A stretch of DNA of 31,376 nucleotides from Acidimicrobiia bacterium. Lineage in GTDB: Bacteria; Actinomycetota; Acidimicrobiia; Acidimicrobiales; Ilumatobacteraceae. Of the stretch, positions 7,611 through 30,637 are shown in pieces. The notes under the pieces were generated by a model, which was not told the origin of the DNA, did not search any database, and saw nothing but the letters and a program-made list of their open reading frames with translations. Made by a program: the position numbers and the translations under genes. The DNA lies in NCBI GenBank assembly GCA_009927565.1, contig RFMT01000382.1:1-31376 (forward strand), given 5' to 3'. Within the stretch, counting starts at the first letter, position 1. Every line of letters begins with the position of its first letter.

Positions 7611-8569
7611 TACTTTTTCGCTTTCAGCGGCTCCCACCACCAGCGATTGTCGCGATACCAATTCACCGTCGCCTCGAGAGCTTCGTCTAGTGAGCGAGTT
7701 CGTTTCCAGCCAAGTTGCGTGATCTTGGTGATGTCTACCGAGTAACGCCGATCGTGACCCAACCGGTCGGCTACATATTGCACACTTGATTCATCCTTGC
7801 CCAATAACGCCAAAAGTTTGTCGACCAGAACACGATTTGCGGTTTCGTTGCCTGCCCCGATGTTGTAAATCTCACCTGGCTTGCCGTGCTCAAGTGCGAG
7901 ATGAACACCCGCACAGTGGTCGTCGACATAGATCCAATCGCGTTCGTTGAGTCCGTCACCGTATAACGGTATTTTCTTGCCGTCGAGCAGGTTCGTGGTG
8001 AACAACGGAATTGCTTTTTCGGGATACTGAAAAGGCCCGAAATTATTTGTGCATCGAGTGACAACTACTGGCGTTCCGTGAGTTGAAAAATAAGACAGAG
8101 CGATTAAGTCGCTGCCGGCCTTTGATGCCGAATATGGACTTCTGGGTTCGAGTGGGTCGCCCTCGCGCGACGAGCCAGTTTCGACTGAACCGTAGACCTC
8201 GTCTGTGCCAATGTGCAGCACTCGAGCGATTTTCAATCTTCGAGCCGCATCAACAACGACGTTAGTGCCAAAACAATTTGTCAAAATAAAGTCTTCGCTG
8301 CCTGCGATTGACCTATCGACATGACTCTCAGCAGCAAAGTGCACGACAGCATCGTGACCAGCCATCGCTGATTCGACATCGCCCGGTTGACAAATATTGC
8401 CCTTTACAAATTTGAATCTCGGGCTGTCGTCGACATCTTTTAGTGTCGACAAGTTGCCGGCATAAGTTAGCGAGTCATATACGGTGACTTCGTGGTCGGT
8501 GTTCGCAAAAACCCAACGCACATAATTTGAGCCGATAAAACCGGCACCACCGGTTACAAAAATTTTCAT
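7610..8569 (-). CDS. rmlB: dTDP-glucose 4,6-dehydratase
   Basis: MKIFVTGGAGFIGS (ATG 8569), HFAAESHVDRSI, TDEVYG, YSASKA and DRLGHDRRY. Confidence 0.96.
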   Translation of the reverse strand: MKIFVTGGAGFIGSNYVRWVFANTDHEVTVYDSLTYAGNLSTLKDVDDSPRFKFVKGNICQPGDVESAMAGHDAVVHFAAESHVDRSIAGSEDFILTNCFGTNVVVDAARRLKIARVLHIGTDEVYGSVETGSSREGDPLEPRSPYSASKAGSDLIALSYFSTHGTPVVVTRCTNNFGPFQYPEKAIPLFTTNLLDGKKIPLYGDGLNERDWIYVDDHCAGVHLALEHGKPGEIYNIGAGNETANRVLVDKLLALLGKDESSVQYVADRLGHDRRYSVDITKITQLGWKRTRSLDEALEATVNWYRDNRWWWEPLKAKK

Positions 8570-8573
8570 CGAC

Positions 8574-9140
8574 TTATGTGCGCATCGGCCAGAACGGGCG
8601 AACCTGATCTTTGATCGCATCACGAGTCGGGTTAGCCGCATCGCGCTCTGACAAAATTGGTTTTGTAATACCCCAGTCGGCTTCTACGGCTTTGTCGTTA
8701 TAGGCCAAACCCAGTTCGTCTTTCGGGTTGTAGTAACTGTCGACCAAATAAGTAATTGTCATGTCGGTTAGCGATGCAAAACCGTGCGCGACGCCTGGCG
8801 GAATAAATATGCCTCGATGATCGTGCGTGCCGTCGGCCCGCGCACCAATATCGATTACCTGAGTCGCGCCATCCGTAGGCGAGCCGACTCGAAGATCGTG
8901 CAAGACGACGCGACACATACCGATCGGCACATACCAATAGTCGGCTTGATGCAGGTGATAGTGCAAACCAACGATGCAACCCGCCTGACGATCACCACGG
9001 TTACCCTGCAACATTTCGCGACCAAGTGGAAACCATTCGCGACGATATGTTTCGATAAAAATACCGCGCGAGTCGCCATGCATCTGCGGCTCAACGATTT
9101 GCACACCTTTAATCACGCTCGACTCGGTTATTTTGGCCAT
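8574..9140 (-). CDS. rmlC: dTDP-4-dehydrorhamnose 3,5-epimerase
   Basis: HGDSRGIFIETY, GLHYH, IPPGVAHGF and YLVDSYY motifs; position within the rml operon. Confidence 0.94.
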   Translation of the reverse strand: MAKITESSVIKGVQIVEPQMHGDSRGIFIETYRREWFPLGREMLQGNRGDRQAGCIVGLHYHLHQADYWYVPIGMCRVVLHDLRVGSPTDGATQVIDIGARADGTHDHRGIFIPPGVAHGFASLTDMTITYLVDSYYNPKDELGLAYNDKAVEADWGITKPILSERDAANPTRDAIKDQVRPFWPMRT

Positions 9141-10225
9141 TATTCAAGCTCAACTTTCGAATCGTCGCCAAGCATCAAACGCAACGCTCGCGGTTGCTGC
9201 ACGCTGCGCATCACTTCAACATCTCGCCCAATCAGCGAATCTGTAAGTTTCGATACGCCGATTATCGAACTGCCGTCAAGAACAACCGAGTGCTCCATTT
9301 CTGATTTGATAACACGGCAGTTTTTACCGAGCGATGTATACGGCCCGATGTAACTGTCTTCGACAATTGCATCTGGCCCAATTACCACCGGCCCACGAAT
9401 TCGAGAATTCGAAATCTTCGCACCTTTTTCAACGGTCACTCGACCTTGAATCTGCGATGCGCCGTCGACCGCTCCATCAATACGATGAGTCATCGCATCG
9501 AGAACCAGACGATTGCACTCTAAAAGCGGGTCTTTCTTGCCGGTGTCAATCCACCAGCCTTGAAGAACTTTGTGCCGCACCGATAGTTTGTTGTCAACTA
9601 GCCACTGAATAGCGTCGGTGATTTCAAGTTCACCTCGCGCCGATGGCTTAATCGATCGCACTGCCTTGTTGATTGATTTGTCAAACAAATAAACGCCCAC
9701 CAAAGCCAGATCTGACGGCGGGTCTTTTGGTTTTTCGACTAAACGAACCACGTGTCCATCTTTGTCAACTTCGGCCACACCAAACTGTCGTGGGTCTTCA
9801 ACATGACACAACAAGATCTGTGCCGAAGGCTTATCTTTCGCATTGCTCGCGCGCGCGCTTTCGAAGTCGTTGACGAATTCTTCAAGACCTTGCTCGAGCA
9901 TATTGTCGCCCAAATACATAATGAAGTCGTCATCACCCAAAAATTTGTCGGCGATCAGAACGCAGTGCGCCAAGCCGAGAGGCTCATCTTGCGGAATATA
10001 AGTGACCTTGACTCCAAACTGGCTGCCGTCGCCAACCGCAGATTTGATTTCTTCGCGCGTCGAGCCAACGATTATGCCTATCTCACGAATGCCCGCTCGC
10101 GCCATCGCCTCTATTCCATAAAACAAGATTGGTTTATTGGCGATCGGTACTAGTTGTTTGGCGCTCGTATGCGTAATAGGCCTTAACCGAGTTCCGGCGC
10201 CACCAGAGAGAATCAGGCCTTTCAT
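9140..10225 (-). CDS. rmlA: Glucose-1-phosphate thymidylyltransferase, long form with a C-terminal left-handed beta-helix
   Basis: LSGGAGTRLRPITHTSAKQL, EKPK, SARGELEITD and WWIDTG motifs. Confidence 0.95.
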   Translation of the reverse strand: MKGLILSGGAGTRLRPITHTSAKQLVPIANKPILFYGIEAMARAGIREIGIIVGSTREEIKSAVGDGSQFGVKVTYIPQDEPLGLAHCVLIADKFLGDDDFIMYLGDNMLEQGLEEFVNDFESARASNAKDKPSAQILLCHVEDPRQFGVAEVDKDGHVVRLVEKPKDPPSDLALVGVYLFDKSINKAVRSIKPSARGELEITDAIQWLVDNKLSVRHKVLQGWWIDTGKKDPLLECNRLVLDAMTHRIDGAVDGASQIQGRVTVEKGAKISNSRIRGPVVIGPDAIVEDSYIGPYTSLGKNCRVIKSEMEHSVVLDGSSIIGVSKLTDSLIGRDVEVMRSVQQPRALRLMLGDDSKVELE

Positions 10226-18119: not shown

Positions 18120-19706
18120 ATGACAAGTTCGCAAAAAGAAGGGCGTCGTGGCGGCCCAGGTGCGCGACGAGCACTTCGAGCCGCGCCGCTTGCATTAGAT
18201 ATTCGCCCAGTGAACCCCGGCATGGAGAGCGGCCGCTACAAGCCGCTTACCGATGCTGAAGTTTTAAAAGTCCACAATGCGGCACTTGACGTGCTCGAAA
18301 ACATCGGCCTCGCCGATGCAATTCCAACTTGCATCGAGGCGCTCACGCCGCTTGGTTGCAAACTTTCGCCAGAGGGCCGTTTGTTGTTTCCTCGCAGTCT
18401 GATTGAACACACACTTTCAATCGCCGCACGTAAGTTCACTCTTTATGGTCAAGATCCTAAATATGACATGGAGCCGTGGGGCAAAAAGGTTTATTTCGGC
18501 ACAGCAGGCGCCGCCGTTTACATCGTTGACCCAAAAACTGGCGAATACCGCGAATCACTCTCGCAAGATGCTTACGACATTGCTCGACTCGTCGACCAAA
18601 TGGAGCACATCCACTTTTATCAGCGCACTGTCGTGCCGCGCGATCTGCCCGACCCCGCCGAAATGGATATCAACACTTGTTATCTGAGTGTCAGCGGCAC
18701 AACTAAACATGTCGGCACTTCATGGGTTCACCCTGACCATCTCGATGCATCGCTCAAAATGTTGCACGACATTGCGGGTGGCGAAGACAAATGGCGTGCT
18801 CGTCCATTTGTTAGTCAGTCAAATTGTTTTGTTGTTCCGCCACTTAAGTTCGCAACCGATGCATGTCGTTGTCTCGAGACTGCCGTCTATGGCGGCATGC
18901 CAGTGCTGTTGCTTTCGGCTGGTCAAGCTGGCGCAACTGCACCAGCAGCTCTTGCAGGCGCGCTCGTTCAAGAAGTCGCCGAAGTGCTCGCCGGTTTGGC
19001 TTACGTCAATGCTCTTGTGCCAGGTCACCCAGCAATTTTTGGCACTTGGTCGTTTGTCTCTGACTTGCGCTCAGGTGCGATGTCAGGTGGCAGCCCAGAG
19101 CAAGCAATTCTGTCGGCGGCAAGTGCGCAAATGGCACACTTTTACGATCTCACTGGTGGCACTTCGTCGGGCATTAGCGATTCGAAAATTCCTGATGCAC
19201 AAGCAGGCGCTGAAAAGGGTTACAACCACGCGCTAGTTGGCAACGCAGGCATGAATTTAATCTACGAATCGGCTGGCATGCACGGCAGTCTTCTTGGTTT
19301 CTCACTTGAAGGCGTGGTGCTTGATAACGACATTGTCGGCGCCGTGCAACGCACGATCAAGGGCATTGACGTCACCGACGAGTCGCTGTCAGTCGACACA
19401 ATTCGCGCTGCAGTTATCGACGGTCCTGGTCACTACTTGGGTGCAAAACAAACTCTCGACATCATGCAAACCGAGTACATCTACCCCGCAGTTGGCGATC
19501 GTTTGAGCCCGAAAGAGTGGAATGAAGTCGGTCGACCACAGATTATTGATGTAGCGATCGCCAAAGTTAAAAACATTTTGGACAATCACTACCCGAGCCA
19601 TATTCCAGAAGACATAGATGCGCGAATTCGCGAATATCTACCAATCAGATTGCCTCGCGAAAAAATGATTCACCCTGCTTTGCGTGGTGAAACCGCCGGC
19701 GTTTGA
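18120..19706 (+). CDS. Trimethylamine methyltransferase (MttB) superfamily protein, non-pyrrolysine (MtgB-like quaternary-amine demethylase)
   Basis: 528 aa with typical family segments (GQAGATAPAALAGALVQ, DLRSGAMSGGSPE, DSKIPDAQAGAEK, GPGHYLGAKQT). No in-frame TAG. Confidence 0.9.
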   Translation: MTSSQKEGRRGGPGARRALRAAPLALDIRPVNPGMESGRYKPLTDAEVLKVHNAALDVLENIGLADAIPTCIEALTPLGCKLSPEGRLLFPRSLIEHTLSIAARKFTLYGQDPKYDMEPWGKKVYFGTAGAAVYIVDPKTGEYRESLSQDAYDIARLVDQMEHIHFYQRTVVPRDLPDPAEMDINTCYLSVSGTTKHVGTSWVHPDHLDASLKMLHDIAGGEDKWRARPFVSQSNCFVVPPLKFATDACRCLETAVYGGMPVLLLSAGQAGATAPAALAGALVQEVAEVLAGLAYVNALVPGHPAIFGTWSFVSDLRSGAMSGGSPEQAILSAASAQMAHFYDLTGGTSSGISDSKIPDAQAGAEKGYNHALVGNAGMNLIYESAGMHGSLLGFSLEGVVLDNDIVGAVQRTIKGIDVTDESLSVDTIRAAVIDGPGHYLGAKQTLDIMQTEYIYPAVGDRLSPKEWNEVGRPQIIDVAIAKVKNILDNHYPSHIPEDIDARIREYLPIRLPREKMIHPALRGETAGV

Positions 19707-19730
19707 CCAAAACTTTTGTTGAAACCTTTT

Positions 19731-19806
19731 TGGCGCCCTTGGTAGGAGTCGAACCTACGACCAACGGATTAGAAGTCCGGTGCTCTATCCACTGAGCTAC
19801 AAGGGC
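19731..19806 (-). tRNA. tRNA-Arg (anticodon TCT), CCA encoded
   Basis: GCCCTTG acceptor stem, GCTC/GAGC D stem, loop CTTCTAA, T arm GTAGG-TTCGACT-CCTAC, ending CAAGGGCGCCA; 76 nt. Confidence 0.96.
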
Positions 19807-19824
19807 TAGTCAACTTCAGGCTAT

Positions 19825-20679
19825 CTAATTTGTGATTCTGTGTTTGTGCGTATAGATGTTTGCAGTGCCATCGCGCACGAAACCGACAAGTGTGATACCG
19901 AGATCGTCAGAGGTTTCAACTGCCAAATTTGAGGGCGCACCAACGGCGGCGATAAATGCGATGCCTGCCATCGCCGCTTTCTGAATAATTTCAAATGACA
20001 GCCGACCACTGACGACCAATGCATGCTCTGAAATCGGAACTTTGCCGTCGAGCACTGCTTTGCCGATGACTTTGTCTACCGCATTGTGTCGACCAATATC
20101 TTCGCGCACACAATATGCCTCGCCAGATGCGTCGACTAAGCCGGCTGCATGCAAACCGCCTGTGCGATCAAAAGTTGGTTGCGCTTTGCGAATTATGTCT
20201 GGCAATGATGTCAGCACCGTTGAAGTCATCACTGGCCCGGACGCCGAATCGATACGACTTGTGATCTGTGCGAGTTGTTCGATCGAAGTCGTGCCGCAAA
20301 TACCACAACTTGCCGAAGTCACCATTCCGCGACGAGACAACGCCTCGTCGAACGGCATAGCAAGACCCACCGTGACGACATTGAATTGCTGCTCGGCCGA
20401 ATCTGGCAACTGGCAATATCGCACGTTGCGAACATCATCAGCGCGTTTGATCATTCCTTCGGTAAACAAAAACCCAACCGCCAATTCAAAATCATGACCA
20501 GGCGTGCGCATCGTTACCGCAACGGGTTGCGCCTCTTGCTGCGGAGACTCGGCACGAATCTCGAGAGGCTCTTCAGTGACCAATACGTCGGGCTTGCTGG
20601 CTTGCGAACCGTCTTTTCGCACGGTCGTGACAGTCCAGTTGGCGACCTTGCGTCGAACGCCAGCCGCGATGTTTGCCAC
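19825..20679 (-). CDS. fdhD: Formate dehydrogenase accessory sulfurtransferase
   Basis: EEPLEI, MRTPGHDFELAVGFL, SCGICG, TGGLHAA and EDIGRHNAVDK motifs. Confidence 0.95.
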   Translation of the reverse strand: MANIAAGVRRKVANWTVTTVRKDGSQASKPDVLVTEEPLEIRAESPQQEAQPVAVTMRTPGHDFELAVGFLFTEGMIKRADDVRNVRYCQLPDSAEQQFNVVTVGLAMPFDEALSRRGMVTSASCGICGTTSIEQLAQITSRIDSASGPVMTSTVLTSLPDIIRKAQPTFDRTGGLHAAGLVDASGEAYCVREDIGRHNAVDKVIGKAVLDGKVPISEHALVVSGRLSFEIIQKAAMAGIAFIAAVGAPSNLAVETSDDLGITLVGFVRDGTANIYTHKHRITN

Positions 20680-20830
20680 ACAAATATGCTAGCGGTGGCT
20701 GAAAATATGGGTTTTACGGCTTGCCACAAATCACACTGGCCCAATGTGTGTGCTTATATTACTAGTGGAAATTGTTTAAGGTCGCAACAATGTGGTCACA
20801 GTTTCTGAAATACCTACCGGAGGTCATTTA

Positions 20831-21580
20831 ATGGAAAAGCTTGTTACAGGCAATGACCAATTGGTTTACAACGCGTTTTCTTTCGCCGTAGCGGCGATGG
20901 CAATCTCGTTTGTCTACTATTTGGTCTCTCGAAGCCGCGTTTCTCCTGCGTATCGCAGTGCAGTAACGATGTCGGCAATGATTTGCGGTATCGCCGCTTA
21001 TCACTACTGGAGAATGTTCAGCAATTTTGCTGATGGTGCTCCATGGAACGAAGGTTACCGCTACGCAGACTGGTTGCTCACTGTGCCACTACTTGTTGCA
21101 GAACTCGTGGTCGTCTCGGGCGTCGCCAAAGAAAAAGCAAGCGGTTTGACAACAAAACTTGCTCTTGCTGCAGTTTTGATGATCGCAACCGGCTATCCAG
21201 GCGAAACAGCCGCCGCAGGCAGCGATGCCAGCATGATCTGGTTCGTCGTTTCGATGATTTTCTTTGTCTACATTCTCTGGAACTTGTTCGCAGGTGAAGT
21301 TGGCAAAGCCCTCAAAGGTCAGTCTGGCGAAATCGGCAAGAAGCTCAACAACCTTCGCTATGTGTTGTTGGTGACTTGGTCGGTTTATCCAATCGCTTAC
21401 CTCTTGGGTGACAGCGAGAGTTTCTTGGCCAAAGCACTTGATCTCACACCAGGTGACTCATCGACTCTTATCCAAGTCGGTTACACAGTTGCCGACGTTT
21501 TGGCTAAGCCAGGTTACGGTCTTTTGATCTTGGGCATTGCAATCGCTCGCTCAAAGGCCGAAGGTTACCGCGAAGCGTAA
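20831..21580 (+). CDS. Microbial (type 1) rhodopsin, DTE-motif outward proton pump, xanthorhodopsin/MACR-like
   Basis: Seven hydrophobic segments; helix C RYADWLLTVPLLVAE (D85/T89/E96 in BR numbering); helix B His (AYHY); helix G DVLAKPGYG (retinal Lys). RBS GGAGG before ATG 20831. Confidence 0.96.
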   Translation: MEKLVTGNDQLVYNAFSFAVAAMAISFVYYLVSRSRVSPAYRSAVTMSAMICGIAAYHYWRMFSNFADGAPWNEGYRYADWLLTVPLLVAELVVVSGVAKEKASGLTTKLALAAVLMIATGYPGETAAAGSDASMIWFVVSMIFFVYILWNLFAGEVGKALKGQSGEIGKKLNNLRYVLLVTWSVYPIAYLLGDSESFLAKALDLTPGDSSTLIQVGYTVADVLAKPGYGLLILGIAIARSKAEGYREA

Positions 21581-21598
21581 ATCGCATCAATAATTCAC

Positions 21599-21636
21599 AA
21601 AGAGCCCTGGCTTCGGCCAGGGCTCTTTTATTTTGA
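21599..21636 (+). terminator. Intrinsic terminator of the rhodopsin gene
   Basis: 13-bp perfect stem AAAGAGCCCTGGC/GCCAGGGCTCTTT closed by a C(UUCG)G tetraloop and followed by a T-rich tract. Confidence 0.92.
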
Positions 21637-21655
21637 GCACTAATCTCGTTGTGCG

Positions 21656-22678
21656 ATGTTGAAGATAAAACACCTGCCGGGTCTTGCAATTGCTGCACTG
21701 ATCGCTTCCGTCGCATTCGTTGTCGAATTCATTGTCAAAAACAACACTGCTGGCGTCGTCTCACCTTTAGTCATTTCTGTGGTGCTCGGCGCTCTGATTT
21801 CGAATCTTGGTTTGCTGCCTGAAATATGCCGAGTGGGCCTTGGCTTTGCGGCACGCAACTTGCTTCGACTGGGCATTGTGTTGCTTGGTCTACAACTTTC
21901 ATTTTCTCAAGTGCGCGAGATCGGCGCACCCGGATTGGCGCTAGTCATTGTCGTAGTTGCAGTCACGTTCACTGGCACTCAATGGCTTGGCAAGAGGATG
22001 GGTTTGTCGCCTGGTTTAAGCCTTCTCGTCGCCACAGGTTTTTCAATCTGTGGCGCTTCAGCGATTGCTGCAATGCGACCCGTCAGCGACGCCGACGATG
22101 ATGACATGGCATACGCAATCGCGCTCGTAACAATTTGTGGCACACTTGCGATTTTTCTGCTTCCTACAATTGGTGAAGCAATTGGCTTTAGTGGTGCACA
22201 GTTCGGTTCATGGGTTGGTGCAAGTGTTCACGATGTTGCCCAAACAGTTGCAACTGCCGCATCGGGCAACGATGAGGCCCAAAACGCTGCGATAGTCGTC
22301 AAGCTGACTCGAGTCATGCTGCTTGCGCCCCTAGTTGCCGCAGTAAGTTTCAGTCGTCGGCAACAACTGAACCGCGAATCTGTTGCTGGCTCAAAAACCG
22401 TGAAAACAAAACTTCCACCGATTGTCCCTCTATTTATAGTTGGCTTCATCGCTTCGATTTGCGTCAACTCATCTTTTAATCTGCCCAGTGAATTTCTCTC
22501 GAATGTCAAGTGGGTCGAAAAGTCACTGCTCGCTTGCGCGCTTGTTGGCTTAGGCGCGGGTGTCGATGCAAAAAAACTTCGCCGTGTTGGCACCCGCCCA
22601 CTAACGCTTGGCTTAATCTCGTGGGTACTCGTCGCTACGCTTTCAGCTATCGGCGTGGCGCTTCTAAATATTTCTTAG
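21656..22678 (+). CDS. YeiH / UPF0324 membrane protein (putative sulfate exporter family)
   Basis: LLRLGIVLLG, GFSICGASAIAA, GASVHDVAQ and KLTRV motifs; about 10 TM segments. Confidence 0.92.
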   Translation: MLKIKHLPGLAIAALIASVAFVVEFIVKNNTAGVVSPLVISVVLGALISNLGLLPEICRVGLGFAARNLLRLGIVLLGLQLSFSQVREIGAPGLALVIVVVAVTFTGTQWLGKRMGLSPGLSLLVATGFSICGASAIAAMRPVSDADDDDMAYAIALVTICGTLAIFLLPTIGEAIGFSGAQFGSWVGASVHDVAQTVATAASGNDEAQNAAIVVKLTRVMLLAPLVAAVSFSRRQQLNRESVAGSKTVKTKLPPIVPLFIVGFIASICVNSSFNLPSEFLSNVKWVEKSLLACALVGLGAGVDAKKLRRVGTRPLTLGLISWVLVATLSAIGVALLNIS

Positions 22679-23187
22679 CAATCAACAAATTCGAGCCGAC
22701 CTGATTTAACGTCGTAAATTGCGCCTGCAACTTTCAAAGTTTTCGGCAAAATCTCATAGTTGCGAATGCTGACGACATCAGATGCAAGCGCGGCACGTTG
22801 ATCTGTAACCATTTTGAATTGAACACCCCGGGTGTCAATACCGTGCTTGGTTTCAATGCTGCGATGAATTGATTCTTCGTCTCCGCTAGCCATTCGGCAG
22901 TCAGTGTGCGGCATTACTAAGACCCTCTCAACGCCAAGTAGATAGGTCGCCAAGACCAGAGTTCGAAGCATGTCGTCGGTGACTCGAGCGCCGGCATTTC
23001 GCAAAATCTTGGCATCACCTGATTTCATACCAACTACTGCCAGTGGGTTTATCCGCGAGTCCATGCAGGTCACGATCGCCAAACCCCGACGCGCTGTGCC
23101 CGTTAAGTGCTCGTCTTGAAAATTCGCGACGAACTGCGAATTTGAAGTAATAATGTCGGCAAAAGCTTCACTCGGAAACCTATTCAT
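22675..23187 (-). CDS. Beta-class carbonic anhydrase (small Cab/Rv1284-like type)
   Basis: Zn ligands TCMDSR and HTDC, plus RNAGARV; probable ATG at 23187. Confidence 0.9.
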   Translation of the reverse strand: MNRFPSEAFADIITSNSQFVANFQDEHLTGTARRGLAIVTCMDSRINPLAVVGMKSGDAKILRNAGARVTDDMLRTLVLATYLLGVERVLVMPHTDCRMASGDEESIHRSIETKHGIDTRGVQFKMVTDQRAALASDVVSIRNYEILPKTLKVAGAIYDVKSGRLEFVDC

Positions 23188-23237
23188 AATCCACGAGACT
23201 ACTCGTCCAAACAAACTGTGCGCACTAGATTTTGAAG

Positions 23238-24146
23238 GTGCTAAAAAACCAAAGAGTTATCGGTACGGCACTCGTGATGATGTCAAGTCTTGGTTTTTCA
23301 ATCGGACCAACCCTGGCGAAATATGCATATGACGCGGGCACGAACCCACTCGGCGTGATGACAATTCGTTTTACGATCGCAAGTTTGTTCATGTTGATCA
23401 TTCGACAGATTTTGATGCGCGGTGAACCAATGCCGTCTTTACGGGTGCTCCTAGAAATGTTTACAGTCGGCACACTTGGCATTACCACCGTCTCGTTCAC
23501 TTACTTTCTGGCGATTGAAGATATTGATACCGGTCTGGCAATCGTTATTTGGTATTGCAATCCGCTTGTAGTGGTTTTCATCTCATGGATAATTTACAAA
23601 AAGCGACCATCGCGCAATATCGTCATCTCGCTCTTTTTTTCGATTACTGGCATTGCAATCACTACGGGTCAGGTCAAGAGTGGCTCGAGCGGTGCGATCA
23701 TATTAATTTTTGTTTCTGCGTTTCTCTTTGCTTTTTATCTTCTCGGTCTGTCAAACACACTGAAAAAAACTGACCTGCTAACTGGCGTCACGTTTATCAA
23801 CATCGGCGCAATGCTCGGCTATTGGTTGATTTGTGCGATTCTGCCATTTGATTTGACGGTTGAATTTCCGTCGAACGCCAAAAGTTGGCTGTACATCGGG
23901 GCCTTTGGTTTGTTTGGCACCGTAGTGCCGTTCATGTTTTCGTTTGCCGGCATGAAGCGGGTTGGTCCCAGCATGCTTTCGGTGATTACAACTATTGAAC
24001 CAATACTGGCAATCATGATGGGCATAATTTTTCTCGGCGAGCCACTCACTACGCCACGCGTAATTGGTGCGATTTTCGTAATTGGCGCACTGATTGCGCT
24101 GACTTTGCTCGAAAGCCGCGATGAAGCAGCCCTCGAGCGAAGCTAG
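23238..24146 (+). CDS. EamA/DMT-family transporter
   Basis: Two EamA-like halves with about 10 TM segments; motif SVITTIEPILA. The GTG start lies 6 nt after TAGATT. Confidence 0.88.
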   Translation: MLKNQRVIGTALVMMSSLGFSIGPTLAKYAYDAGTNPLGVMTIRFTIASLFMLIIRQILMRGEPMPSLRVLLEMFTVGTLGITTVSFTYFLAIEDIDTGLAIVIWYCNPLVVVFISWIIYKKRPSRNIVISLFFSITGIAITTGQVKSGSSGAIILIFVSAFLFAFYLLGLSNTLKKTDLLTGVTFINIGAMLGYWLICAILPFDLTVEFPSNAKSWLYIGAFGLFGTVVPFMFSFAGMKRVGPSMLSVITTIEPILAIMMGIIFLGEPLTTPRVIGAIFVIGALIALTLLESRDEAALERS

Positions 24147-24152
24147 CTAATT

Positions 24153-27100
24153 TCAACTGTTCAGCGCTGCCTTTTGCTCAGGCGTTAGTGCCTTTACGAA
24201 CGCTGGTTTCAACGCTTTTTCTTGGGCGGGTGTCATTGCTGCCAACTTCTCGTTGCTAAAACCTGCCGCCGATTTGGCAGTGAGTGCGGCAACCGCGGCG
24301 GGTTTCATAGCAACTATGGATTCAGCCGGCAAGGCCTCGACTTGATTTGCTTTCAAACCGGCCATCGCCGTCGGTGGCAACGCACCAACTTGTTGCGGAG
24401 TCATCGACGCCATCGCCGCAGGCGGCAACGCACCAACCTGAGTCGGCTTCATCGCCCCGAACGCAGCAGCAGGCAACGCACCCACCTGCTCAGGGTTGAA
24501 CGAACCGAAAGCATTCGCCGGTATCGCCCCCAACTGTGTCGGTTTGATCGACGCCATGACCTCGGGTGCGAGAGCACCAACTTGAGCGGGTTTGAATCCC
24601 GTGAAAGCCGTGGGTGGCATCGCTTTGAATTGACCTGGGTTCATCGCCGAAAAAGTTTCGGGCGAAAGTTTTGCGGCGTCGGTCGGTTTGAAATTACTGA
24701 ACGCATTTGCCGGAACCTTGTCGACGTTCCATCCGGTCAACGCACCAGCCAATGCCGTCGCATTGCCGACGTTGGTCGGCGCAGCATTTGCCGCGGGGTT
24801 AAACGCCTGCTGTGGCAAAGCTTGACGTTGCTCGGGGCTCATTGACGCAATTACTTCAGGAGATAATGACTTGAACTGCAAGGGCGAAATCACCGCCAGT
24901 GCGGTCGGCGGCATTGAGTCCATTTGGTTTGGCGTGAACACTTTCATCGCCGAGGCCGGAATCACCTTGAATTGATTTTGCTGCATTCCCGCCATTGCGT
25001 CTGGAGGAAGCGCAGCAAATTGTGCGGGCTTGAAGCCGATCATGGCTTGTGGCGGTAGCGCGGCGAACTGATCTTGCTGAATGCCAGTCATCGCTGCGGG
25101 CGGCAGCACTTTGAATTGACTCAACTGCATACCCGCCATCGCCGCAGGTGGAAGTTCGGCCATCTGATCGGGCTTCAAACCAGTCATTGCACTCGGCGGA
25201 AGAACAGAAAGCTGTTGAGGTTTGAAACCGGCCATCGCCTCGGGTGGCAATGCCGCCATCTGATCTGGTTTAAAACCAACCATTGCCGTCGGTGGTAACT
25301 GCGCAAACTGATCGGGTCTAAAACCTGCCATCGCATTCGGGGGCAGCTGAGCAAACTGATCAGGTTTGAAGCCGGCCATCGCCGCAGGTGGCAACTGGGC
25401 AAACTGATCGGGTTTGAAACCTGTCATTGCACTCGGCGGAAGAACAGAAAACTGATCAGGTTTGAAACCTGCCATCGCTTCGGGTGGCAACGCCGCCATC
25501 TGGTCGGGCTTGAAACCAACCATTGCCGTCGGCGGCAACTGAGCCATCTGATCAGGTCTGAAACCCGCCATAGCCGTCGGCGGCAACTGAGCCATCTGAT
25601 CAGGTCTAAAGCCCGCCATCGCCTCTGGTGGCAACTGAGCCATTTGATTTTGGTTGAAACCTGCCATCGCCGCGGGGTTCAGATTATTGATCTGATTGCG
25701 ATCGAATCCCGCCATGGCTGTCGGTGGCAGAGCTGCAAATTGGTTCGGCTGAAAATTTTGCAAAGCACCCGCGCCAAGAGAGCGTGCGTCATCAGGTCGA
25801 AAACCCATAAAATTGTCAGGGCGCAAGTTGACCATGTCCGAACCGTTCAACGCGTTCGGGTTTTGAATCATTCCACCTGGGCCAAAATTGATTCCTGGGC
25901 CAACATTGCATGGCGGCAGTGGCGGTGGTCCGCAATTTGTCGGCGCGGGGCCGATAGGCGCGGGGCCGACCGGTCCACCTGGGCCAGCGGGTGCTCCTCC
26001 GCCACCACTCGGTGCCGAAACTGGTGGCGCTACTGCTGTGAACTGATATTGACCAGCGGTCACGGCACTTGCCGTCGCGTTGCCCGCACCATCGACAAAT
26101 GCCCCGGAGTCAATGAGCAAGAAATATGTGGTCGATGCCGTCAAGTTTGCCGCAGGGTTGAGCACAACACCCATTCCAGCCTTTGATGAAGTGACGCTTG
26201 CGGACGGAAACGTAAACGTCTCGACAGGAGTCGCGCAATCTGCGTCACCCGTGCAAAGTCGAATCGTCTTGGTCGCCACCGTCGAAACGGCTTCGCTGAA
26301 CGCCAGTTCAATGTTGCGATCCAACACGAAATTAGGCATGTTGTGTGGTGGATCTGATTGATTCACGTTCAATACCGGCGCGACCGTGTCAGGGCTCGCC
26401 TCAAATCGCCACGCGGTCGTGCTTGTTAGCGCGGCGTTCGGGTTGCCCGCTAAGTCGGTGAACGCACCTGCTTCGAACGTGACGTAGTAACTAGTCGCAG
26501 GGTCTATCACCAAATTTTGGGTTGATGTTTTGCCAGTTCGCGTGATCGTGATTAGGGCACCCGAATTGTTTGGAAATTGCGTTATTGCAGTTTCACTTTG
26601 AGCGCCAATTGTGATCGTCTCGTGCAGAATATTGCCCGTGGCTCTGTAGATAAACAGTTTCTTGCCGTTAACCACTGCCATGTTTTCAGGAAATATCAAA
26701 CTCAGCGCTTGAGTCGCCTGCACGCCGACCGCACCAGGAAACGGCATGAATCCTTGCGGCGCGGGCGCGGTGTTGTCGATCACGATGTTCTTGTTGGCAT
26801 TAAGCGAACCGCTGGCCATAGATGCGGGCACAGCGGTGCTCGCGGTCACGCCACTCATCGTGACGCCAGCAGGCAGATTGAAACCTGTGACGTTTAGTCT
26901 TTGACCCGACTGGGCCAGCGTCGAATCGATAGCGCCAATTGTGTAGGTAAATGTCAAGGTGTTCGTGCCCGAGCCACTGGCATAAGTTGCCACAGCGCTT
27001 GCGCCTGAATTAAGCGTCAGTTCGGGGTTACCACCGGCAACGGTTACCGATTGATTGAATCGCACCTGAATCGAAGTGGCGCCACCAGAGCGGTAACAAC

Positions 27101-28511
27101 CATCGGAGGTTGACGATGTAATGTTTGTGACAACTGCGGGCGATGTCGCAGTCGTAAAGTTCCAAGTTGTGGCGTTTGAAATGCCCGCAAAGGCGTTCGC
27201 GCGACCGTCACGAATCGCACCTGCACCAACCTTGACGTGCACGGCAGTGCTGCCTGGCAATGTGGCGCTTGGGTTGACCGTCATCGTGAACGGCGAAACG
27301 CTCGTGAACGCAACGCGAGTGCTGTCAAGAGTCGGTATCGCTTCGACTACTCGCAGGGCTGTCGAGCCACCTGCGGCCGCAGTCGAGCCGAGGTCTGAAA
27401 CATTGGCCACGTTTGCCGAACTAGCCGCGGTGCCCGCTGCCGCTTTTGTCAGATTGACAGCGAAGGTGTTTGCATCTGCCGCCGTTACTACAAACGCACC
27501 GTTGCTCTCTTTTTGCGACAGACCCGCAATCAACACGACGTCACCCACCACAAAACCATGACTAGTTGAGGTCAATGTCGCGACATTGCTAGCAATCGCA
27601 ATGTTCGTGATCGTCTTTGCAGTGTCGGCGTCGGCGGCGACTGTGACATAACGCAACGGGGCAATCACGCCTCCCGTCATAGTCGACGATTCGTTGGTGC
27701 AACCGATCGCATACGAAATATTTCGGCCAGTTACGGCCGTGACTCTGAAATAAGTTTTGCTACCAGTGCCAGCATCATAATTTGGGCCGACTTGATAAGG
27801 ATAAATCAGGTCACCGACAACAACATCGTGGTCACGTTGAGCGACGACTGTCGCCGTGTTGCCCCCAGCACACGAACGAGATGTCACTGATATGTAAGGT
27901 GTCGCCGCTTCAGTTGTTGTGAGCACCAAATTTGAGGTGCTGGCAACATCACTTGCCGAATCTGCAGGCGAGTATGTCGAAGCCGTCGGTGCAGTGACAT
28001 CAACCGACAAAAATACTGACGCACCACCGCATGCAAGATTGCTACACAGACCACCAGAGAGTGCAGTCGTAGTCGCAGAGATGGTGTCAAAACCAGTGAC
28101 TGTCAATGTTGCGCTGTTGGCCAGCGTCAACGAAGTCGGTCCAAAAGACACTTGTGAGGTATCGGTGCTCAAGACCGTGTAAGGAAACACCAGACAATTG
28201 TTGGTGCCACCCGCGTTGCTCTCACGCGCCCCTGCCCATGAGATGCCGGTTGCAGCACGAGTATTGAGAAATAGTTTTACGTCGGCATTTGCACCACCGA
28301 CCCGACCGACAGAACCTTGGAAACAGACATAAACACTGATCGTGTCGCCGGTGCTCAGCGTCGTGCCACTTGAGGCGATCGGCGTGGCGTTAATCACCGA
28401 AATTGTTGACGGTGCGGCACGCACGGGCGAAACTAGCCCGCCGAGCAAAGTCAAAGTCGACATCAACAACGCAACCAAACCTTTTTGCCAAGGTCGCATA
28501 GTCAGGATCAT
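24153..28511 (-). CDS. Large secreted/surface protein (1452 aa): signal peptide, about five Ig-like domains (three SbsA/Big_5-like), Pro/Gly linker, C-terminal octapeptide-repeat region
   Basis: N-terminal K/R, hydrophobic stretch and VRA-A cleavage site. Repeated D(V/N/T)xAP...AGAFxDxAGN motifs and SGSGTNTLTFTYT. Residues 888-1452 consist of 8-aa repeats. Confidence 0.85.
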   Translation of the reverse strand: MILTMRPWQKGLVALLMSTLTLLGGLVSPVRAAPSTISVINATPIASSGTTLSTGDTISVYVCFQGSVGRVGGANADVKLFLNTRAATGISWAGARESNAGGTNNCLVFPYTVLSTDTSQVSFGPTSLTLANSATLTVTGFDTISATTTALSGGLCSNLACGGASVFLSVDVTAPTASTYSPADSASDVASTSNLVLTTTEAATPYISVTSRSCAGGNTATVVAQRDHDVVVGDLIYPYQVGPNYDAGTGSKTYFRVTAVTGRNISYAIGCTNESSTMTGGVIAPLRYVTVAADADTAKTITNIAIASNVATLTSTSHGFVVGDVVLIAGLSQKESNGAFVVTAADANTFAVNLTKAAAGTAASSANVANVSDLGSTAAAGGSTALRVVEAIPTLDSTRVAFTSVSPFTMTVNPSATLPGSTAVHVKVGAGAIRDGRANAFAGISNATTWNFTTATSPAVVTNITSSTSDGCYRSGGATSIQVRFNQSVTVAGGNPELTLNSGASAVATYASGSGTNTLTFTYTIGAIDSTLAQSGQRLNVTGFNLPAGVTMSGVTASTAVPASMASGSLNANKNIVIDNTAPAPQGFMPFPGAVGVQATQALSLIFPENMAVVNGKKLFIYRATGNILHETITIGAQSETAITQFPNNSGALITITRTGKTSTQNLVIDPATSYYVTFEAGAFTDLAGNPNAALTSTTAWRFEASPDTVAPVLNVNQSDPPHNMPNFVLDRNIELAFSEAVSTVATKTIRLCTGDADCATPVETFTFPSASVTSSKAGMGVVLNPAANLTASTTYFLLIDSGAFVDGAGNATASAVTAGQYQFTAVAPPVSAPSGGGGAPAGPGGPVGPAPIGPAPTNCGPPPLPPCNVGPGINFGPGGMIQNPNALNGSDMVNLRPDNFMGFRPDDARSLGAGALQNFQPNQFAALPPTAMAGFDRNQINNLNPAAMAGFNQNQMAQLPPEAMAGFRPDQMAQLPPTAMAGFRPDQMAQLPPTAMVGFKPDQMAALPPEAMAGFKPDQFSVLPPSAMTGFKPDQFAQLPPAAMAGFKPDQFAQLPPNAMAGFRPDQFAQLPPTAMVGFKPDQMAALPPEAMAGFKPQQLSVLPPSAMTGLKPDQMAELPPAAMAGMQLSQFKVLPPAAMTGIQQDQFAALPPQAMIGFKPAQFAALPPDAMAGMQQNQFKVIPASAMKVFTPNQMDSMPPTALAVISPLQFKSLSPEVIASMSPEQRQALPQQAFNPAANAAPTNVGNATALAGALTGWNVDKVPANAFSNFKPTDAAKLSPETFSAMNPGQFKAMPPTAFTGFKPAQVGALAPEVMASIKPTQLGAIPANAFGSFNPEQVGALPAAAFGAMKPTQVGALPPAAMASMTPQQVGALPPTAMAGLKANQVEALPAESIVAMKPAAVAALTAKSAAGFSNEKLAAMTPAQEKALKPAFVKALTPEQKAALNS
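24156..25850 (-). repeat. Coding tandem repeat: about 68 x 24-nt (8-aa) units with a 48-nt (16-aa) period; core FKPDQMAQ-LPPTAMAG
   Basis: By hand count, 44 units, an 18-aa interruption, then 24 units. A 35-nt exact repeat occurs at 25525 and 25573 (offset 48) and a 28-nt exact repeat at 25183 and 25423 (offset 240). Confidence 0.95.
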
Positions 28512-28540
28512 CTCATCCCCCTAATAAATATAAATGCTAC

Positions 28541-28571
28541 TCTTATTAAGAATATAATCTACTATTAGATT
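28541..28571. promoter_or_regulatory. Divergent promoter region with two adjacent inverted repeats (candidate TetR operators)
   Basis: TCTTA-T-TAAGA (28541-28551) and AATCTA-CTAT-TAGATT (28556-28571) flank or overlap a perfect TATAAT (28553-28558) in an AT-rich 104-bp intergenic gap. Confidence 0.5.
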
Positions 28572-28615
28572 TTGTCATCGGCAAGTCGCAATTCACCTAG
28601 AATTCGGGGCAACAA

Positions 28616-29869
28616 ATGCTTTTTAATTCGACGCCTTCGCCAGCAATTGCCAAACGTGCCCCGTCGACTCGGGCCCAGGCGAACAAAGCCAAGATGATCA
28701 AGGCAATAGTTCGCAATGCCGCCGACCACGGGCTTGATCAACTCAGCATTGGCCAAGTGGCAAAACGCGCTGGTCTAACCACCGGGGCAATTTACGGTCG
28801 GTATGAAGACCGTGACGAATTGGCCATCGAACTTTGGCACTCAGTCATTAAAGAGCCACTCAGAGCACGCCTTGAACGAGGGGTCGAGTTCATGGCCGCC
28901 AACGTGCGCATCTCGCGAACGCGTGATATGACGCCACTGACAAACGACGAATTGCTGGCACTGATCATTAGCGACTTCGAGTCACCAGATGAAATTGCCA
29001 AAATCGGCGCCGAATTCTTGGTCGTCGCGCGTCGCGACCTCGCAATTGGCGAAGTTGTTATCCCTGAAGTTTCAGGTTGGCTCACAGATCTTGGCCTAGT
29101 CAATTCGCAATCGGCGATCGACAAGGCGGCAATTGTCATCGCACTTTCGGCGTCTATCGGCACGGCCCTGCGTGCGTTTGTGTTCAAATCAAATCCGAGT
29201 TGGTATTTAATCGCTGACGGCTTGCGCTCTGCAGCGGCGGCAGCCCAACCAACACAACAACAAGCCGATATTGAAGCACCTCACTGGACAGATCCGCAGA
29301 CCGAAAACCCGGTGCGCACGGCGTTGATCTACGCCGTGGCAGAAGTCGTTGCCAAGTCGGGATATGCCAACGCCACAATTTCTAGAATTGTTCGTCGTGC
29401 GGGGTTGACAAACGGCTCGCTATACAACTTGTATGCCGACAAAGAAGCCCTTACCGACGACGCGATGCAAATTTTTCTGAACCTTGCGTCAGATGTTAAC
29501 CGCGAAAGCAATGCCCGTGCCGAGACACAGTTGCGAATTGATCGCGGTCTCACCGATAGTTTCATGCTTGCGTTTATGCCGCATCGTCGTCAATGGCTTG
29601 ATTTTCGCCTTGAGTGCTTAATTGCCTCGCGCGATCACCTGCCAACGCGAAGAAAATTCAGGCAAAGCCTCGAGCGATCAAGAGACAACCTCGCCGCGAC
29701 GATGCCTGACTTGGCGCAGGAAACTATCAACTTGCTTTCGAGTGGCGAACAGGCGATCGGTATCGGGTTGACGACTCTTGGGCCATATACGACTCTCGTG
29801 CAAGACGGCGACTATTTCTCGATTATGGCCAAACTCTCAGAACAGAACAGACTTCTGAATTCAAAATAA
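28616..29869 (+). CDS. Tandem (double) TetR-family transcriptional regulator
   Basis: Two TetR HTH domains, SIGQVAKRAGLTTGAIYGRY (aa ~44-63) and TISRIVRRAGLTNGSLYNLY (aa ~254-273), each followed by a helical domain. The start codon is uncertain. Confidence 0.85.
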   Translation: MLFNSTPSPAIAKRAPSTRAQANKAKMIKAIVRNAADHGLDQLSIGQVAKRAGLTTGAIYGRYEDRDELAIELWHSVIKEPLRARLERGVEFMAANVRISRTRDMTPLTNDELLALIISDFESPDEIAKIGAEFLVVARRDLAIGEVVIPEVSGWLTDLGLVNSQSAIDKAAIVIALSASIGTALRAFVFKSNPSWYLIADGLRSAAAAAQPTQQQADIEAPHWTDPQTENPVRTALIYAVAEVVAKSGYANATISRIVRRAGLTNGSLYNLYADKEALTDDAMQIFLNLASDVNRESNARAETQLRIDRGLTDSFMLAFMPHRRQWLDFRLECLIASRDHLPTRRKFRQSLERSRDNLAATMPDLAQETINLLSSGEQAIGIGLTTLGPYTTLVQDGDYFSIMAKLSEQNRLLNSK

Positions 29870-29872
29870 CTA

Positions 29873-30637
29873 TCAAGAAAACGGTGGCGCAGGAATATAT
29901 TGACAGATCGGTTGACCTGCCATCACCGTCCACTGCGAACCAGGTATGCGTTCGGTCAGTGCACGCATCGCCAAATCGCCCGCGATCGAGATTTCCATCA
30001 CGCCCATGCTGAACGACTTGGCATATTCGCGTGCGAGTTCACTAACCAACGGCGTGTCTAAAAAGCCCGGACATAACGCGCTGATGCAAACGCCGTGTGG
30101 CTCGAGTGCCGGACCAAGAGATTTCACGAGGCCCACCATCGCATGCTTGGTTAGTCCGTAAATTGGGTCGGGCGCGATGGCGATAATGCCCGCCAGCGAC
30201 GCAGTTACCAAAATATGGCCGCTCTTGCGAGCAACCATTCCCGGAATAACCGCACGCGCGCCATAGACGACACCGTCAACATTGATGCTCATGATGCGCT
30301 CGTAAGCGTCGTTGTCGAGTTTTTCGAGCGGAAAATTCGAGATGTTGCCAATTACGTTTTGATGCGTCGAGACACCTGCGTTGAGACACACAATGTCAAA
30401 CGGCTCAAATGTCGGTATCAATTTTTGCCAGGCTTGCGAATCAGTCACGTCAAGGTGCACATATTCACCGCCTACTTCAACTGCTACTTGCTTGCCGAGC
30501 GTGTCGTTGACATCAGCAACGACAACTGTTGCTCCTTCGCGCGTAAATCGGCGTGCCATCTCTGCGCCAATACCACTTGCACCGCCAGTAATAAATGCTC
30601 GATGCCCCGCCAATTGCCCCGTCGTGTCGTTGCCCAT
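29873..30637 (-). CDS. SDR-family oxidoreductase
   Basis: TGGASGIG, NAG, ASLAG and YGLTK catalytic motif. Confidence 0.93.
   Translation of the reverse strand: MGNDTTGQLAGHRAFITGGASGIGAEMARRFTREGATVVVADVNDTLGKQVAVEVGGEYVHLDVTDSQAWQKLIPTFEPFDIVCLNAGVSTHQNVIGNISNFPLEKLDNDAYERIMSINVDGVVYGARAVIPGMVARKSGHILVTASLAGIIAIAPDPIYGLTKHAMVGLVKSLGPALEPHGVCISALCPGFLDTPLVSELAREYAKSFSMGVMEISIAGDLAMRALTERIPGSQWTVMAGQPICQYIPAPPFS

Follow-up and report, generated by a model that had tools for sequence, protein, structure and literature searches.

What is the long repetitive tail of a giant secreted protein from a freshwater planktonic bacterium, and what might the cell use it for? The protein is encoded within the window, that is, the whole stretch of DNA that was analysed (31,376 nt), which derives from an Ilumatobacteraceae-type MAG of an acIV actinobacterium whose genome is 73% complete. 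To our knowledge, the cell-surface biology of acIV actinobacteria is almost unknown. A preliminary description of the DNA had taken the tail for a rod of short helices, probably novel and belonging to no named Pfam family. We find that the tail is a member of an already catalogued family, PF20080 (ALTTAQ_rpt); its fold is not new and opens no new class. The explanation that we favour, at a probability of roughly 0.55, is that the protein displays a secreted ALTTAQ helical screw, acting as a stalk with candidate attachment sites.

Results

A secreted protein ending in an array of octads

The gene and its parts, as read from the list of open reading frames, the translation and Pfam, are as follows:

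24153 to 28511, minus strand: whole gene; 1452 aa, secreted, with signal peptide, Ig-like head, Pro/Gly linker and C-terminal repeat array
28413 to 28511, minus strand: residues 1-33, Sec-type signal peptide with a basic n-region and a 17-aa hydrophobic core, presumably cleaved between VRA and AP
25992 to 28412, minus strand: residues 34-840, acidic head (pI 4.9) with Big_5 Ig-like domains in four Pfam stretches
25851 to 25991, minus strand: residues 841-887, Pro/Gly-rich linker with two Cys and zero charged residues
24795 to 25850, minus strand: residues 888-1239, N block of 44 octads (22 A/B pairs), a divergent ALTTAQ variant
24693 to 24794, minus strand: residues 1240-1273, conserved, irregular insert with the motif GWNVDKVP and the sole Trp of the array
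24156 to 24692, minus strand: residues 1274-1452, C block of canonical ALTTAQ octads, mildly basic (pI 9.6)
28616 to 29869, plus strand: divergently transcribed gene for a 417-aa protein with two TetR_N domains (two Pfam stretches)

The array (residues 888-1452) occupies exactly positions 24156-25850 of the window, and the C block finishes in a conserved tail, 3 aa short of the stop. Over the whole protein, Pfam gives 77 bits for Big_5 and 62 bits (61.8) for ALTTAQ_rpt.

The octad register is strict. Unit position 1 is hydrophobic in all 67 octads and position 6 in 61 of them, and in the N block Pro stands at position 3 in 16 of the 22 A units and 19 of the 22 B units, while position 5 alternates between Gln (20/22 A units) and Ala (20/22 B units). 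The two unit patterns are F-K/N-P-D-Q-M/F-A-x for A and L-P-P-x-A-M-x-G for B. Self-identity reaches 0.468 at a lag of 16 residues, against 0.094 +/- 0.012 in 2000 shuffles (z = 31), and 0.19 at a lag of 8 (z = 8); since the signal at lag 16 far exceeds that at lag 8, the true sequence period is 16 aa, a pair of A and B octads. The 565 residues include 111 Ala, 78 Pro, 39 Met and one Trp, with no Cys, His or Tyr. In all of this, namely register, alternation, residue preferences and composition, the preliminary description proves accurate. Its count of about 68 octads, 44 plus 24, holds for the 44 before the break; after the break we count 23 full units, starting at 1266, the 24th being the octad that contains GWN. 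The 18-aa break that it placed at 1240-1257 likewise exists, as the beginning of a more extended irregular stretch that spans approximately 1243-1267 in the secondary structure of the AlphaFold2 (AF2) model.

The tail belongs to the ALTTAQ family

Pfam PF20080 scores 77.8 bits on residues 880-1452, well above its gathering threshold of 26.4. The match is carried mainly by the C-terminal part: residues 1240-1452 score 58.2 bits in six stretches, whereas the N block alone reaches a total of 30.8 bits with every single stretch below threshold. Within the N block, residues 920-1079 give no match at all and residues 1080-1239 give 24.5 bits, under the cut-off. A comparison of sequence features with ESM Atlas clusters yields only ALTTAQ clusters as the nearest ones. 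These scores, together with the structural superpositions described below, overturn the earlier view that the tail had no named family.

The array shares with PF20080 the octad period, the hydrophobic positions 1 and 6, a capping box in which position 5 is Gln, and its location, large extracellular proteins carrying it at their C-terminal end. It departs from the family in its N block: there, A and B units combine into a 16-aa super-repeat, with Pro-Pro and a Met-based core, that is barely recognised by the Pfam model. The Thr-Thr of the canonical motif is replaced by Pro or by Lys/Asn, and the array is broken once by the conserved GWN insert and fused to a Big_5 Ig head. Our literature search for "ALTTAQ" and "PF20080" returned no paper mentioning either name and no experiment on any ALTTAQ protein.

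A home-made HMM of the 16-aa unit, run over all six-frame open reading frames of the genome, detects the array in this gene only; PF20080 itself gave no match in the genome, its 38-position repeat model being too short for that search. An OGT-like glycosyltransferase was sought in the genome and in the window and was not found. Two further groups of matches were set aside as artefacts of composition or period, those to the NCBIfam NrdH glutaredoxin model (24.9 and 37.3 bits, where 85.75 is required) and those to Pfam HTH_Tnp_Mu_2.

A predicted alpha-helical screw

AF2 modelling of residues 880-1452 from a 45-sequence alignment gives a pLDDT of 92.5 and a pTM of 0.71, and the N block modelled alone gives 92.9 and 0.82. 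The model of the whole array holds 69 helices of 4-8 residues, nearly all of 4-6. Within both repeat blocks the helices follow one another at intervals of 8 residues and every one starts at unit position 3 (DSSP); off-register helices appear only within the break and next to it. ESM Atlas models (ESMFold-based) of PF20080 clusters, 87-100% of whose members carry PF20080, superpose on the N-block model with TM 0.88-0.98 and rmsd 0.5-1.6 A over all 128 residues; by this measure the predicted folds are identical. Structure predictors are reported to convert many random 8-mer repeats into helical screws (bioRxiv 10.64898/2025.12.04.691947), therefore a high pLDDT is not in itself proof.

A further comparison is offered by HeliScrew4 (PDB 9ZEM), a designed protein that has been crystallised and is helical by CD. 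Its units are 8-mers in which Pro occupies N1, the N-cap is polar and two positions of each octad supply the apolar core (bioRxiv 10.64898/2025.12.04.691947). The profile of the whole array aligns, through its C block, with 9zem_A at E 5.7e-24 (87.6 bits) and that of the N block at E 1.3e-17 (67.2 bits), both without gaps over 106-111 residues, although E-values of repeat against repeat are inflated. On the one hand, the array shows the features of an 8-mer alpha-helical screw, with one predicted short helix per octad, Pro at N1, an apolar core at two positions and a polar residue as N-cap; on the other hand, HeliScrew4 is a designed monomer of 120 aa, whereas the array is natural, 565 aa long and made of two rods and an insert. 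In the studied protein many A units have Lys or Arg as N-cap, where its orthologues have Asn, Ser or Asp.

According to the 2025 protein-design preprint that describes HeliScrew4, only one natural alpha-helical screw is present in the PDB, and its authors count this fold among the "dark matter" of fold space (bioRxiv 10.64898/2025.12.04.691947). Foldseek and VIA-align searches of the PDB, neither of which returned 9ZEM, found no convincing natural fold match for the array, the best being a pentapeptide-repeat protein (Z 5.3), mesothelin (Z 4.3-5.2) and 7QLR (Z 3.7-4.6). The last is Gp22, the receptor-binding protein of C. difficile phage CDHS-1, to which 127 of 128 N-block residues align weakly, with an rmsd of 3.8-5.0 A. 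In Gp22, short helices linked by loops of 1-3 residues wind into a right-handed superhelix with three helices per turn, which serves as a structural arm bearing a beta-sandwich binding domain; unlike the studied array, Gp22 has irregular helices (5-14 residues) and no sequence repeat, and it dimerises through a helical hairpin.

Taken together, it is highly likely that the array is an alpha-helical screw of the ALTTAQ family, and on the evidence of the models it very probably folds as a long rod of tiny capped helices. The solenoid rod with Pro as helix start, as originally proposed, is thus borne out by the AF2 model. Each of the 67 octads would form one mini-helix of 4-6 residues, with its N-cap at position 2 and mostly Pro at position 3 (N1), and the Phe, Leu and Met residues of positions 1 and 6 would point inward to build a continuous hydrophobic core. 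Two rods, of 44 and 23 units, would be connected through the single conserved irregular GWNVDKVP insert. Assuming the 2.5-4 units per turn given for helical screws (bioRxiv 10.64898/2025.12.04.691947) and a rise of about 9.5 A per turn, which is our own inference, the rod would measure very roughly 16-25 nm.

Conserved structural positions, variable length

Across 34 orthologues the structural positions are strongly conserved, in A units at A1 (F 78%) and A5 (Q 90%) and in B units at B1 (L 90%), B2 (P 95%), B3 (P 91%), B5 (A 98%), B6 (M 86%) and B8 (G 86%). Positions A3, A4, A7, B4 and B7 are free, with entropies of 1.9-2.4 bits. Each of 53 homologues has a single copy of the GWN motif, whose G, W and N, like V387 and P388, are invariant in 45 homologues; the insert also has the lowest pLDDT of the array (76-89). 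The N block varies between 187 and 491 aa and the C block takes lengths of 181, 261 and 341 aa, the differences being mostly multiples of 16.

Of 78 database matches with at least four units, 71 have no more than 60 aa between the end of the array and the C-terminus, and in about half of the acIV-type homologues this distance is 3 aa. The heads ahead of the array in database matches include Big_5, S8 peptidase, TpsA/FHA and fn3. Most homologues have a head of pI 4.1-5.4, and 44 of 53 have a C block of pI above 8. Identity to the closest relative locus is 69% in the head, compared with 89-99% in the flanking genes.

The gene is accessory: it is present in 18 of the 35 species genomes searched of one freshwater acIV (Ilumatobacteraceae) genus, and three other genomes (G012, G018 and G004) carry the same site cleanly without it. 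The two-domain TetR gene stands beside the giant gene in all six relative loci with a match, and is lost along with it in these three congeners. The 104-bp divergent promoter between the two, at 28512-28615, contains no inverted repeats of at least 10 nt. No RNA run is listed as containing the gene.

Positions 23900-25554 are reproduced by contigs from four freshwater metagenome runs, belonging to four studies; those of three runs show 0-3 base differences and zero indels, and the fourth (X1) is in two pieces, leaving 25118-25182 uncovered. None of the four assemblies continues through 25525-25602, an interval in which word depth rises to 1.7- to 3-fold the flanking level, and the unit count there is backed solely by a 99% identical database protein of 1453 aa.

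Discussion

A question remains, could the regular helices of the models conceal something else? An array with 14% Pro, 20% Ala and 9% Gln might be a disordered or polyproline-like linker of low complexity, the helices then reflecting the bias of predictors that, as noted above, often yield screws from random 8-mers. Yet the hydrophobic register of positions 1 and 6, together with capping residues conserved over 34-45 orthologues, implies a packed core, a designed protein with the same pattern has been crystallised, and two different predictors agree to within the rmsd given above; we regard a disordered linker as improbable. Still less can be said for a degenerate leucine-rich repeat domain, a reading that we reject. 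Its attraction lies in profile matches to IGFALS (E 3e-14) and LGR4 (E about 1e-9) through the common pattern L-P-x-x-A-F-x-G-L, scores explained by the LRR period of 24 aa, which equals three octads (3 x 8). The array has a period of 16 aa rather than the 20-30 of LRRs, the LxxLxLxxN motif and the Asn (or Cys) ladder are absent from it, and its AF2 models contain zero beta strands. Nor does the wealth of Met point to a metal-binding site or an oxidant sink, as had been speculated in the preliminary description. The idea fails because 38 of the 39 Met sit at the two core positions, 1 or 6. Their counterparts in HeliScrew4 are Leu, Ile, Phe and Val, the kind of residue that its authors place in the apolar core (bioRxiv 10.64898/2025.12.04.691947), and orthologues exchange Met there for Phe, Leu and Ile. 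A role of the Met residues at the surface is very unlikely.

A rival of a different kind accepts the helical rod and makes it the distal working surface, a superhelix to which glycans or matrix polymers would bind, carried on the Ig part as a stalk. The models for this are mesothelin, stereocilin and otoancorin (PF06060), vertebrate extracellular right-handed solenoids of short helices (PMC10035497). Foldseek returns probabilities of 0.97-1.00 for most mesothelin chains and for the otoancorin and stereocilin models, and PF06060 is found on 26% of the members of the ALTTAQ clusters, with a faint match on the studied protein itself (11.5 bits, E 0.08). That match, however, lies far under the cut-off of 25.8, TM by the solved target is 0.19-0.46 with Z of at most 5.2, and the members of this group have ARM/HEAT-like units with 2-3 helices per turn, lack the octad period and are GPI-anchored. 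Given that the structural positions are conserved whereas the exposed positions are the least conserved and the length of the array is free to vary, a scaffold fits better than a specific binding face. A distal binding surface is therefore a doubtful reading.

A stalk that also provides the anchor is the role that we consider most likely, at somewhat less than even odds. The array would be a semi-rigid stalk or spacer, its length evolving in steps of 16 aa, that keeps the acidic and rapidly diverging Ig-like head off the cell. The C-terminal rod, mildly basic and conserved in sequence, its tail and the GWN insert would be the likeliest non-covalent contacts with the envelope; the stalk role, the stiffness of the rod and the choice of the end that faces the cell are all inferred. 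As the preliminary description held, the array runs to the C-terminus, and neither a TM helix nor LPxTG nor SLH is found in the translated protein. We likewise found neither sortase (PF04203) nor SLH (PF00395) in the genome which, being 73% complete, does not establish their absence. We count the lack of a sortase or SLH match in favour of an anchor based on the array, no alternative anchor having been found. An argument from electrostatics is weak, since the net charges are small (+5 over the 179 aa of the C block).

It is tempting to go further and suppose that the ALTTAQ screw is itself a new non-covalent envelope anchor of sortase-less, SLH-less planktonic acIV cells, in which the GWN insert and the basic C rod bind a wall polymer and the N rod, stepped by 16 aa, sets the projection of a hypervariable Ig head. 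This extension is speculative and, in our estimate, unlikely. If true, the protein would be a length-tunable surface decoy or adhesin under selection by phages or grazers.

Regardless of its precise role, this locus and the wider PF20080 family indicate that nature makes hundreds of residues of the helical-screw fold on secreted proteins, and profiles built from sequences found in nature pick out HeliScrew4, a crystallised design. In the abundant, genome-streamlined acIV actinobacteria the fold would be displayed by a giant surface protein that evolves fast and is polymorphic in its very presence or absence.

Gene layout and assembly support

The repeat array forms the C-terminal part of one giant protein (P0001), the layout of which is as follows.

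24153..28511, minus strand: giant gene, one ORF of 1452 aa, holding the repeat array
residues 1-33: Sec-type signal peptide ending VRA|AP, as read off the sequence
residues 34-840: acidic head, pI 4.9, with four Big_5 Ig-like stretches (Pfam, 77 bits)
residues 841-887 (window 25851-25991): uncharged Pro/Gly linker with two Cys
residues 888-1452: repeat array, extending to 3 residues before the stop

The C-terminal half of P0001 has just two Cys; both fall in the linker, in a C-G-P-P-P-L-P-P-C motif, and could be joined by a disulphide that closes a loop where head and rod meet.

Independent contigs were drawn from four metagenome runs of four studies. Over 23900-25554 the contigs of three runs agree with the window, showing no indel and no more than 3 base differences, and those of the run X1 come in two pieces that leave 25118-25182 without coverage. 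All four contig sets break at 25525-25602, and over 25517-25602 word depth rises to between 1.7 and 3 times the flanking value; this site is a collapsed near-identical 48-bp repeat, and the unit count there rests on a 1453-aa database protein that is 99% identical. The stretch is nearly intact in metagenomes from at least 8 studies, spanning 2011 to 2025.

Repeat register and length variation

The eight-residue register claimed in the preliminary description is borne out: position 1 is hydrophobic in 67/67 octads (8-aa units) and position 6 in 61/67, Pro predominates at position 3, and Gln and Ala alternate at position 5 of the A and B units of the N block (residues 888-1239; 20/22 each). The same is true of the composition it described, with no Cys, His or Tyr and a single Trp. 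Self-identity of the array is 0.468 at lag 16, compared with 0.094 +/- 0.012 in shuffles (z = 31), whereas lag 8 yields only 0.19 (z = 8), which makes the 16-aa A/B pair the period of the sequence. The DNA of the array has periods of 48 bp, 144 bp and 240 bp, and the 84% matches at 240 bp indicate duplication of an 80-aa block.

By secondary structure the break between the two blocks is irregular over ~1243-1267, with one 7-residue helix inside. All three residues of its GWN motif, together with the following V and P, are invariant in 45 homologues, and GWN[VI]D is found in exactly one copy per homologue (53/53). N-block lengths among homologues run from 187 to 491 aa, C-block lengths include 181, 261 and 341 aa, the differences in block length being for the most part multiples of 16.

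Family membership and predicted fold

The preliminary description could name no Pfam family for the array. We find that PF20080 (ALTTAQ repeat) matches it, with 61.8 bits for the whole protein and 77.8 bits for the tail at a cut-off of 26.4. The C block (1240-1452) is canonical for the family (58 bits, six stretches), while the N block reaches a marginal 30.8 bits without any single passing stretch, and PF20080 gives no match to its most regular part, 920-1079. Structure fills this gap left by the sequence model: residues 952-1079, as modelled by AF2, superpose along their whole length of 128 residues on ESM Atlas clusters with a PF20080 share of 87-100% (TM 0.88-0.98, rmsd 0.5-1.6 A). Likewise, the closest Atlas clusters by language-model features are all ALTTAQ. 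We conclude that the array belongs to PF20080 and, by fold class, to the helical screws. No mention of 'ALTTAQ' or 'PF20080' was found in the literature searched, so the family, though catalogued, is unstudied; the array is of a known yet uncharacterised kind. Compared with canonical PF20080, it is distinguished by a 16-aa A/B super-repeat with Pro-Pro and a Met core, by one conserved insert, by fusion to an Ig head, and by the frequent presence of a divergent two-domain TetR gene next to the giant gene. An OGT-like glycosyltransferase partner was not found in the window or in the own genome (73% complete).

With an input alignment of 45 sequences, AF2 predicts 69 helices of 4-8 residues, nearly all of them 4-6, in residues 880-1452 (mean pLDDT 92.5, pTM 0.71), and confidence dips only at the break (76-89). 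In both repeat blocks the predicted helices are spaced by exactly 8 residues and start at unit position 3. The array profile matches HeliScrew4 (9zem_A) without gaps at E 5.7e-24, as does the N-block profile alone at E 1.3e-17, both values being inflated by the alignment of repeat on repeat. HeliScrew4, built by design from 8-mer repeats, has a structure solved at 2.2 A and a helical CD signal. An alpha-helical screw, as defined by its authors, consists of short helices tightly wound about an axis at 2.5-4 units per turn; they also describe Pro at N1, Ser, Thr, Asp or Asn as N-cap and an apolar core (bioRxiv 10.64898/2025.12.04.691947). The predicted helices, together with this match and these rules, support the earlier proposal of a short-helix solenoid in which Pro starts each helix. 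The suggestion that the Met residues bind metal or act as an oxidant sink is not supported: 38/39 lie at positions 1 or 6, which line up with Leu, Ile, Phe and Val in HeliScrew4, and in orthologues Met swaps there with Phe, Leu and Ile. This assigns Met to the core.

The same authors report that predictors easily turn 8-mer repeats into screws, and that their PDB search yielded 7QLR as the sole natural example (bioRxiv 10.64898/2025.12.04.691947). Natural solved structures match the array weakly (mesothelin, Z 4.3-5.2; 7QLR, Z 3.7-4.6). A disordered linker is disfavoured by conservation: in 34 orthologues the residues at core and cap positions are kept at 78-98% and A3, A4, A7, B4 and B7 are free to vary, a pattern that argues for a real packed structure. 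A binding superhelix like that of mesothelin or otoancorin is favoured by Foldseek probabilities of 0.97-1.00 for most of these proteins' entries, but TM reaches no more than 0.46 by solved target and the Pfam score falls far under threshold. Profile matches to IGFALS and LGR4 might suggest an LRR, yet they arise from an LPxxAFxGL pattern shared with the array and a commensurate period (24 = 3 x 8), and the array, with its 16-aa period, has neither strand nor Asn ladder.

Distribution and locus

The named relatives are MAGs from freshwater lakes (Mendota, Biwa, Pavin, Lanier, Powell, Caspian and other waters) that bear the label Ilumatobacteraceae, Acidimicrobiaceae or acIV. Among the sampled genomes, the giant gene has a match in 18/35 other species of the genus, none in the family's other genus, and a single weak match in 24 other families of the order; the own genome (73% complete) holds one array copy. 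Array-bearing contigs with 39-78% identity to the query also occur at six loci (L022, L032, L034, L035, L040, L042) in MAGs labelled Phycisphaerae, Micrococcales, Nanopelagicales and Flavobacteriales, which could reflect mis-binning of short contigs or transfer among co-occurring lake bacteria.

The syntenic order is SDR, double-TetR, giant gene, EamA, beta-carbonic anhydrase, PF03601, rhodopsin, FdhD and MttB. In three congeners (G012, G018 and G004; loci L047 = G012:C3 8957-10669, L048 and L049) SDR adjoins EamA directly, hence double-TetR and the giant gene (24153-29869, ~5.7 kb) are missing as a unit. Many other congeners carry this segment at the same site. Loci L012 and L037 have the giant gene but gave no TetR match at E <= 1e-8. 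Set against window 18120-30637, the closest relative locus (L010) shows 89-99% identity in its flanking genes (MttB 99%, rhodopsin 98%, EamA 92%) and 69%, 68% and 66% in the head, array and TetR protein, respectively; the low identity of the cassette points to its accelerated divergence or allele replacement.

Within the AT-rich 104-bp divergent promoter between giant gene and TetR lies a 6-4-6 palindrome, AATCTA nnnn TAGATT (28556-28571), which is below repeat-finder length and is a possible operator. In five loci (L009, L011, L012, L016, L029) EamA and the beta-carbonic anhydrase gene, adjacent in the window, are set apart by ~2.3 kb of additional DNA, suggesting a second variable insertion point. 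A dTDP-rhamnose gene set of RmlD/RmlB/RmlA type is located at 6762-10225, 14 kb from the giant gene.

Proposed role

In 71/78 database matches with at least 4 units, no more than 60 aa separate the end of the array from the C-terminus; the heads that precede it include Big_5, S8 peptidase, TpsA/FHA and fn3. This placement and the varied heads mark a portable module, sited where stalk or anchor modules usually sit, and the combination of kept structural positions, free surface and length in 16-aa quanta fits an adjustable-length scaffold. Heads are acidic in most homologues (pI 4.1-5.4) and the C block is basic in 44/53; here its pI is 9.6 vs 5.0 for the N block. No LPXTG was found in the protein, nor sortase or SLH in the own genome (73% complete). 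Our best reading, an inference helped by the analogy with 7QLR, whose arm carries a binding domain, is that the array would serve as a semi-rigid stalk projecting the variable Ig head. More tentatively still, the conserved C-terminal rod, the rod tail and the GWN insert would anchor it, probably through non-covalent envelope contacts. The giant gene is an accessory gene for a surface protein, evolving fast and located at a fixed site.
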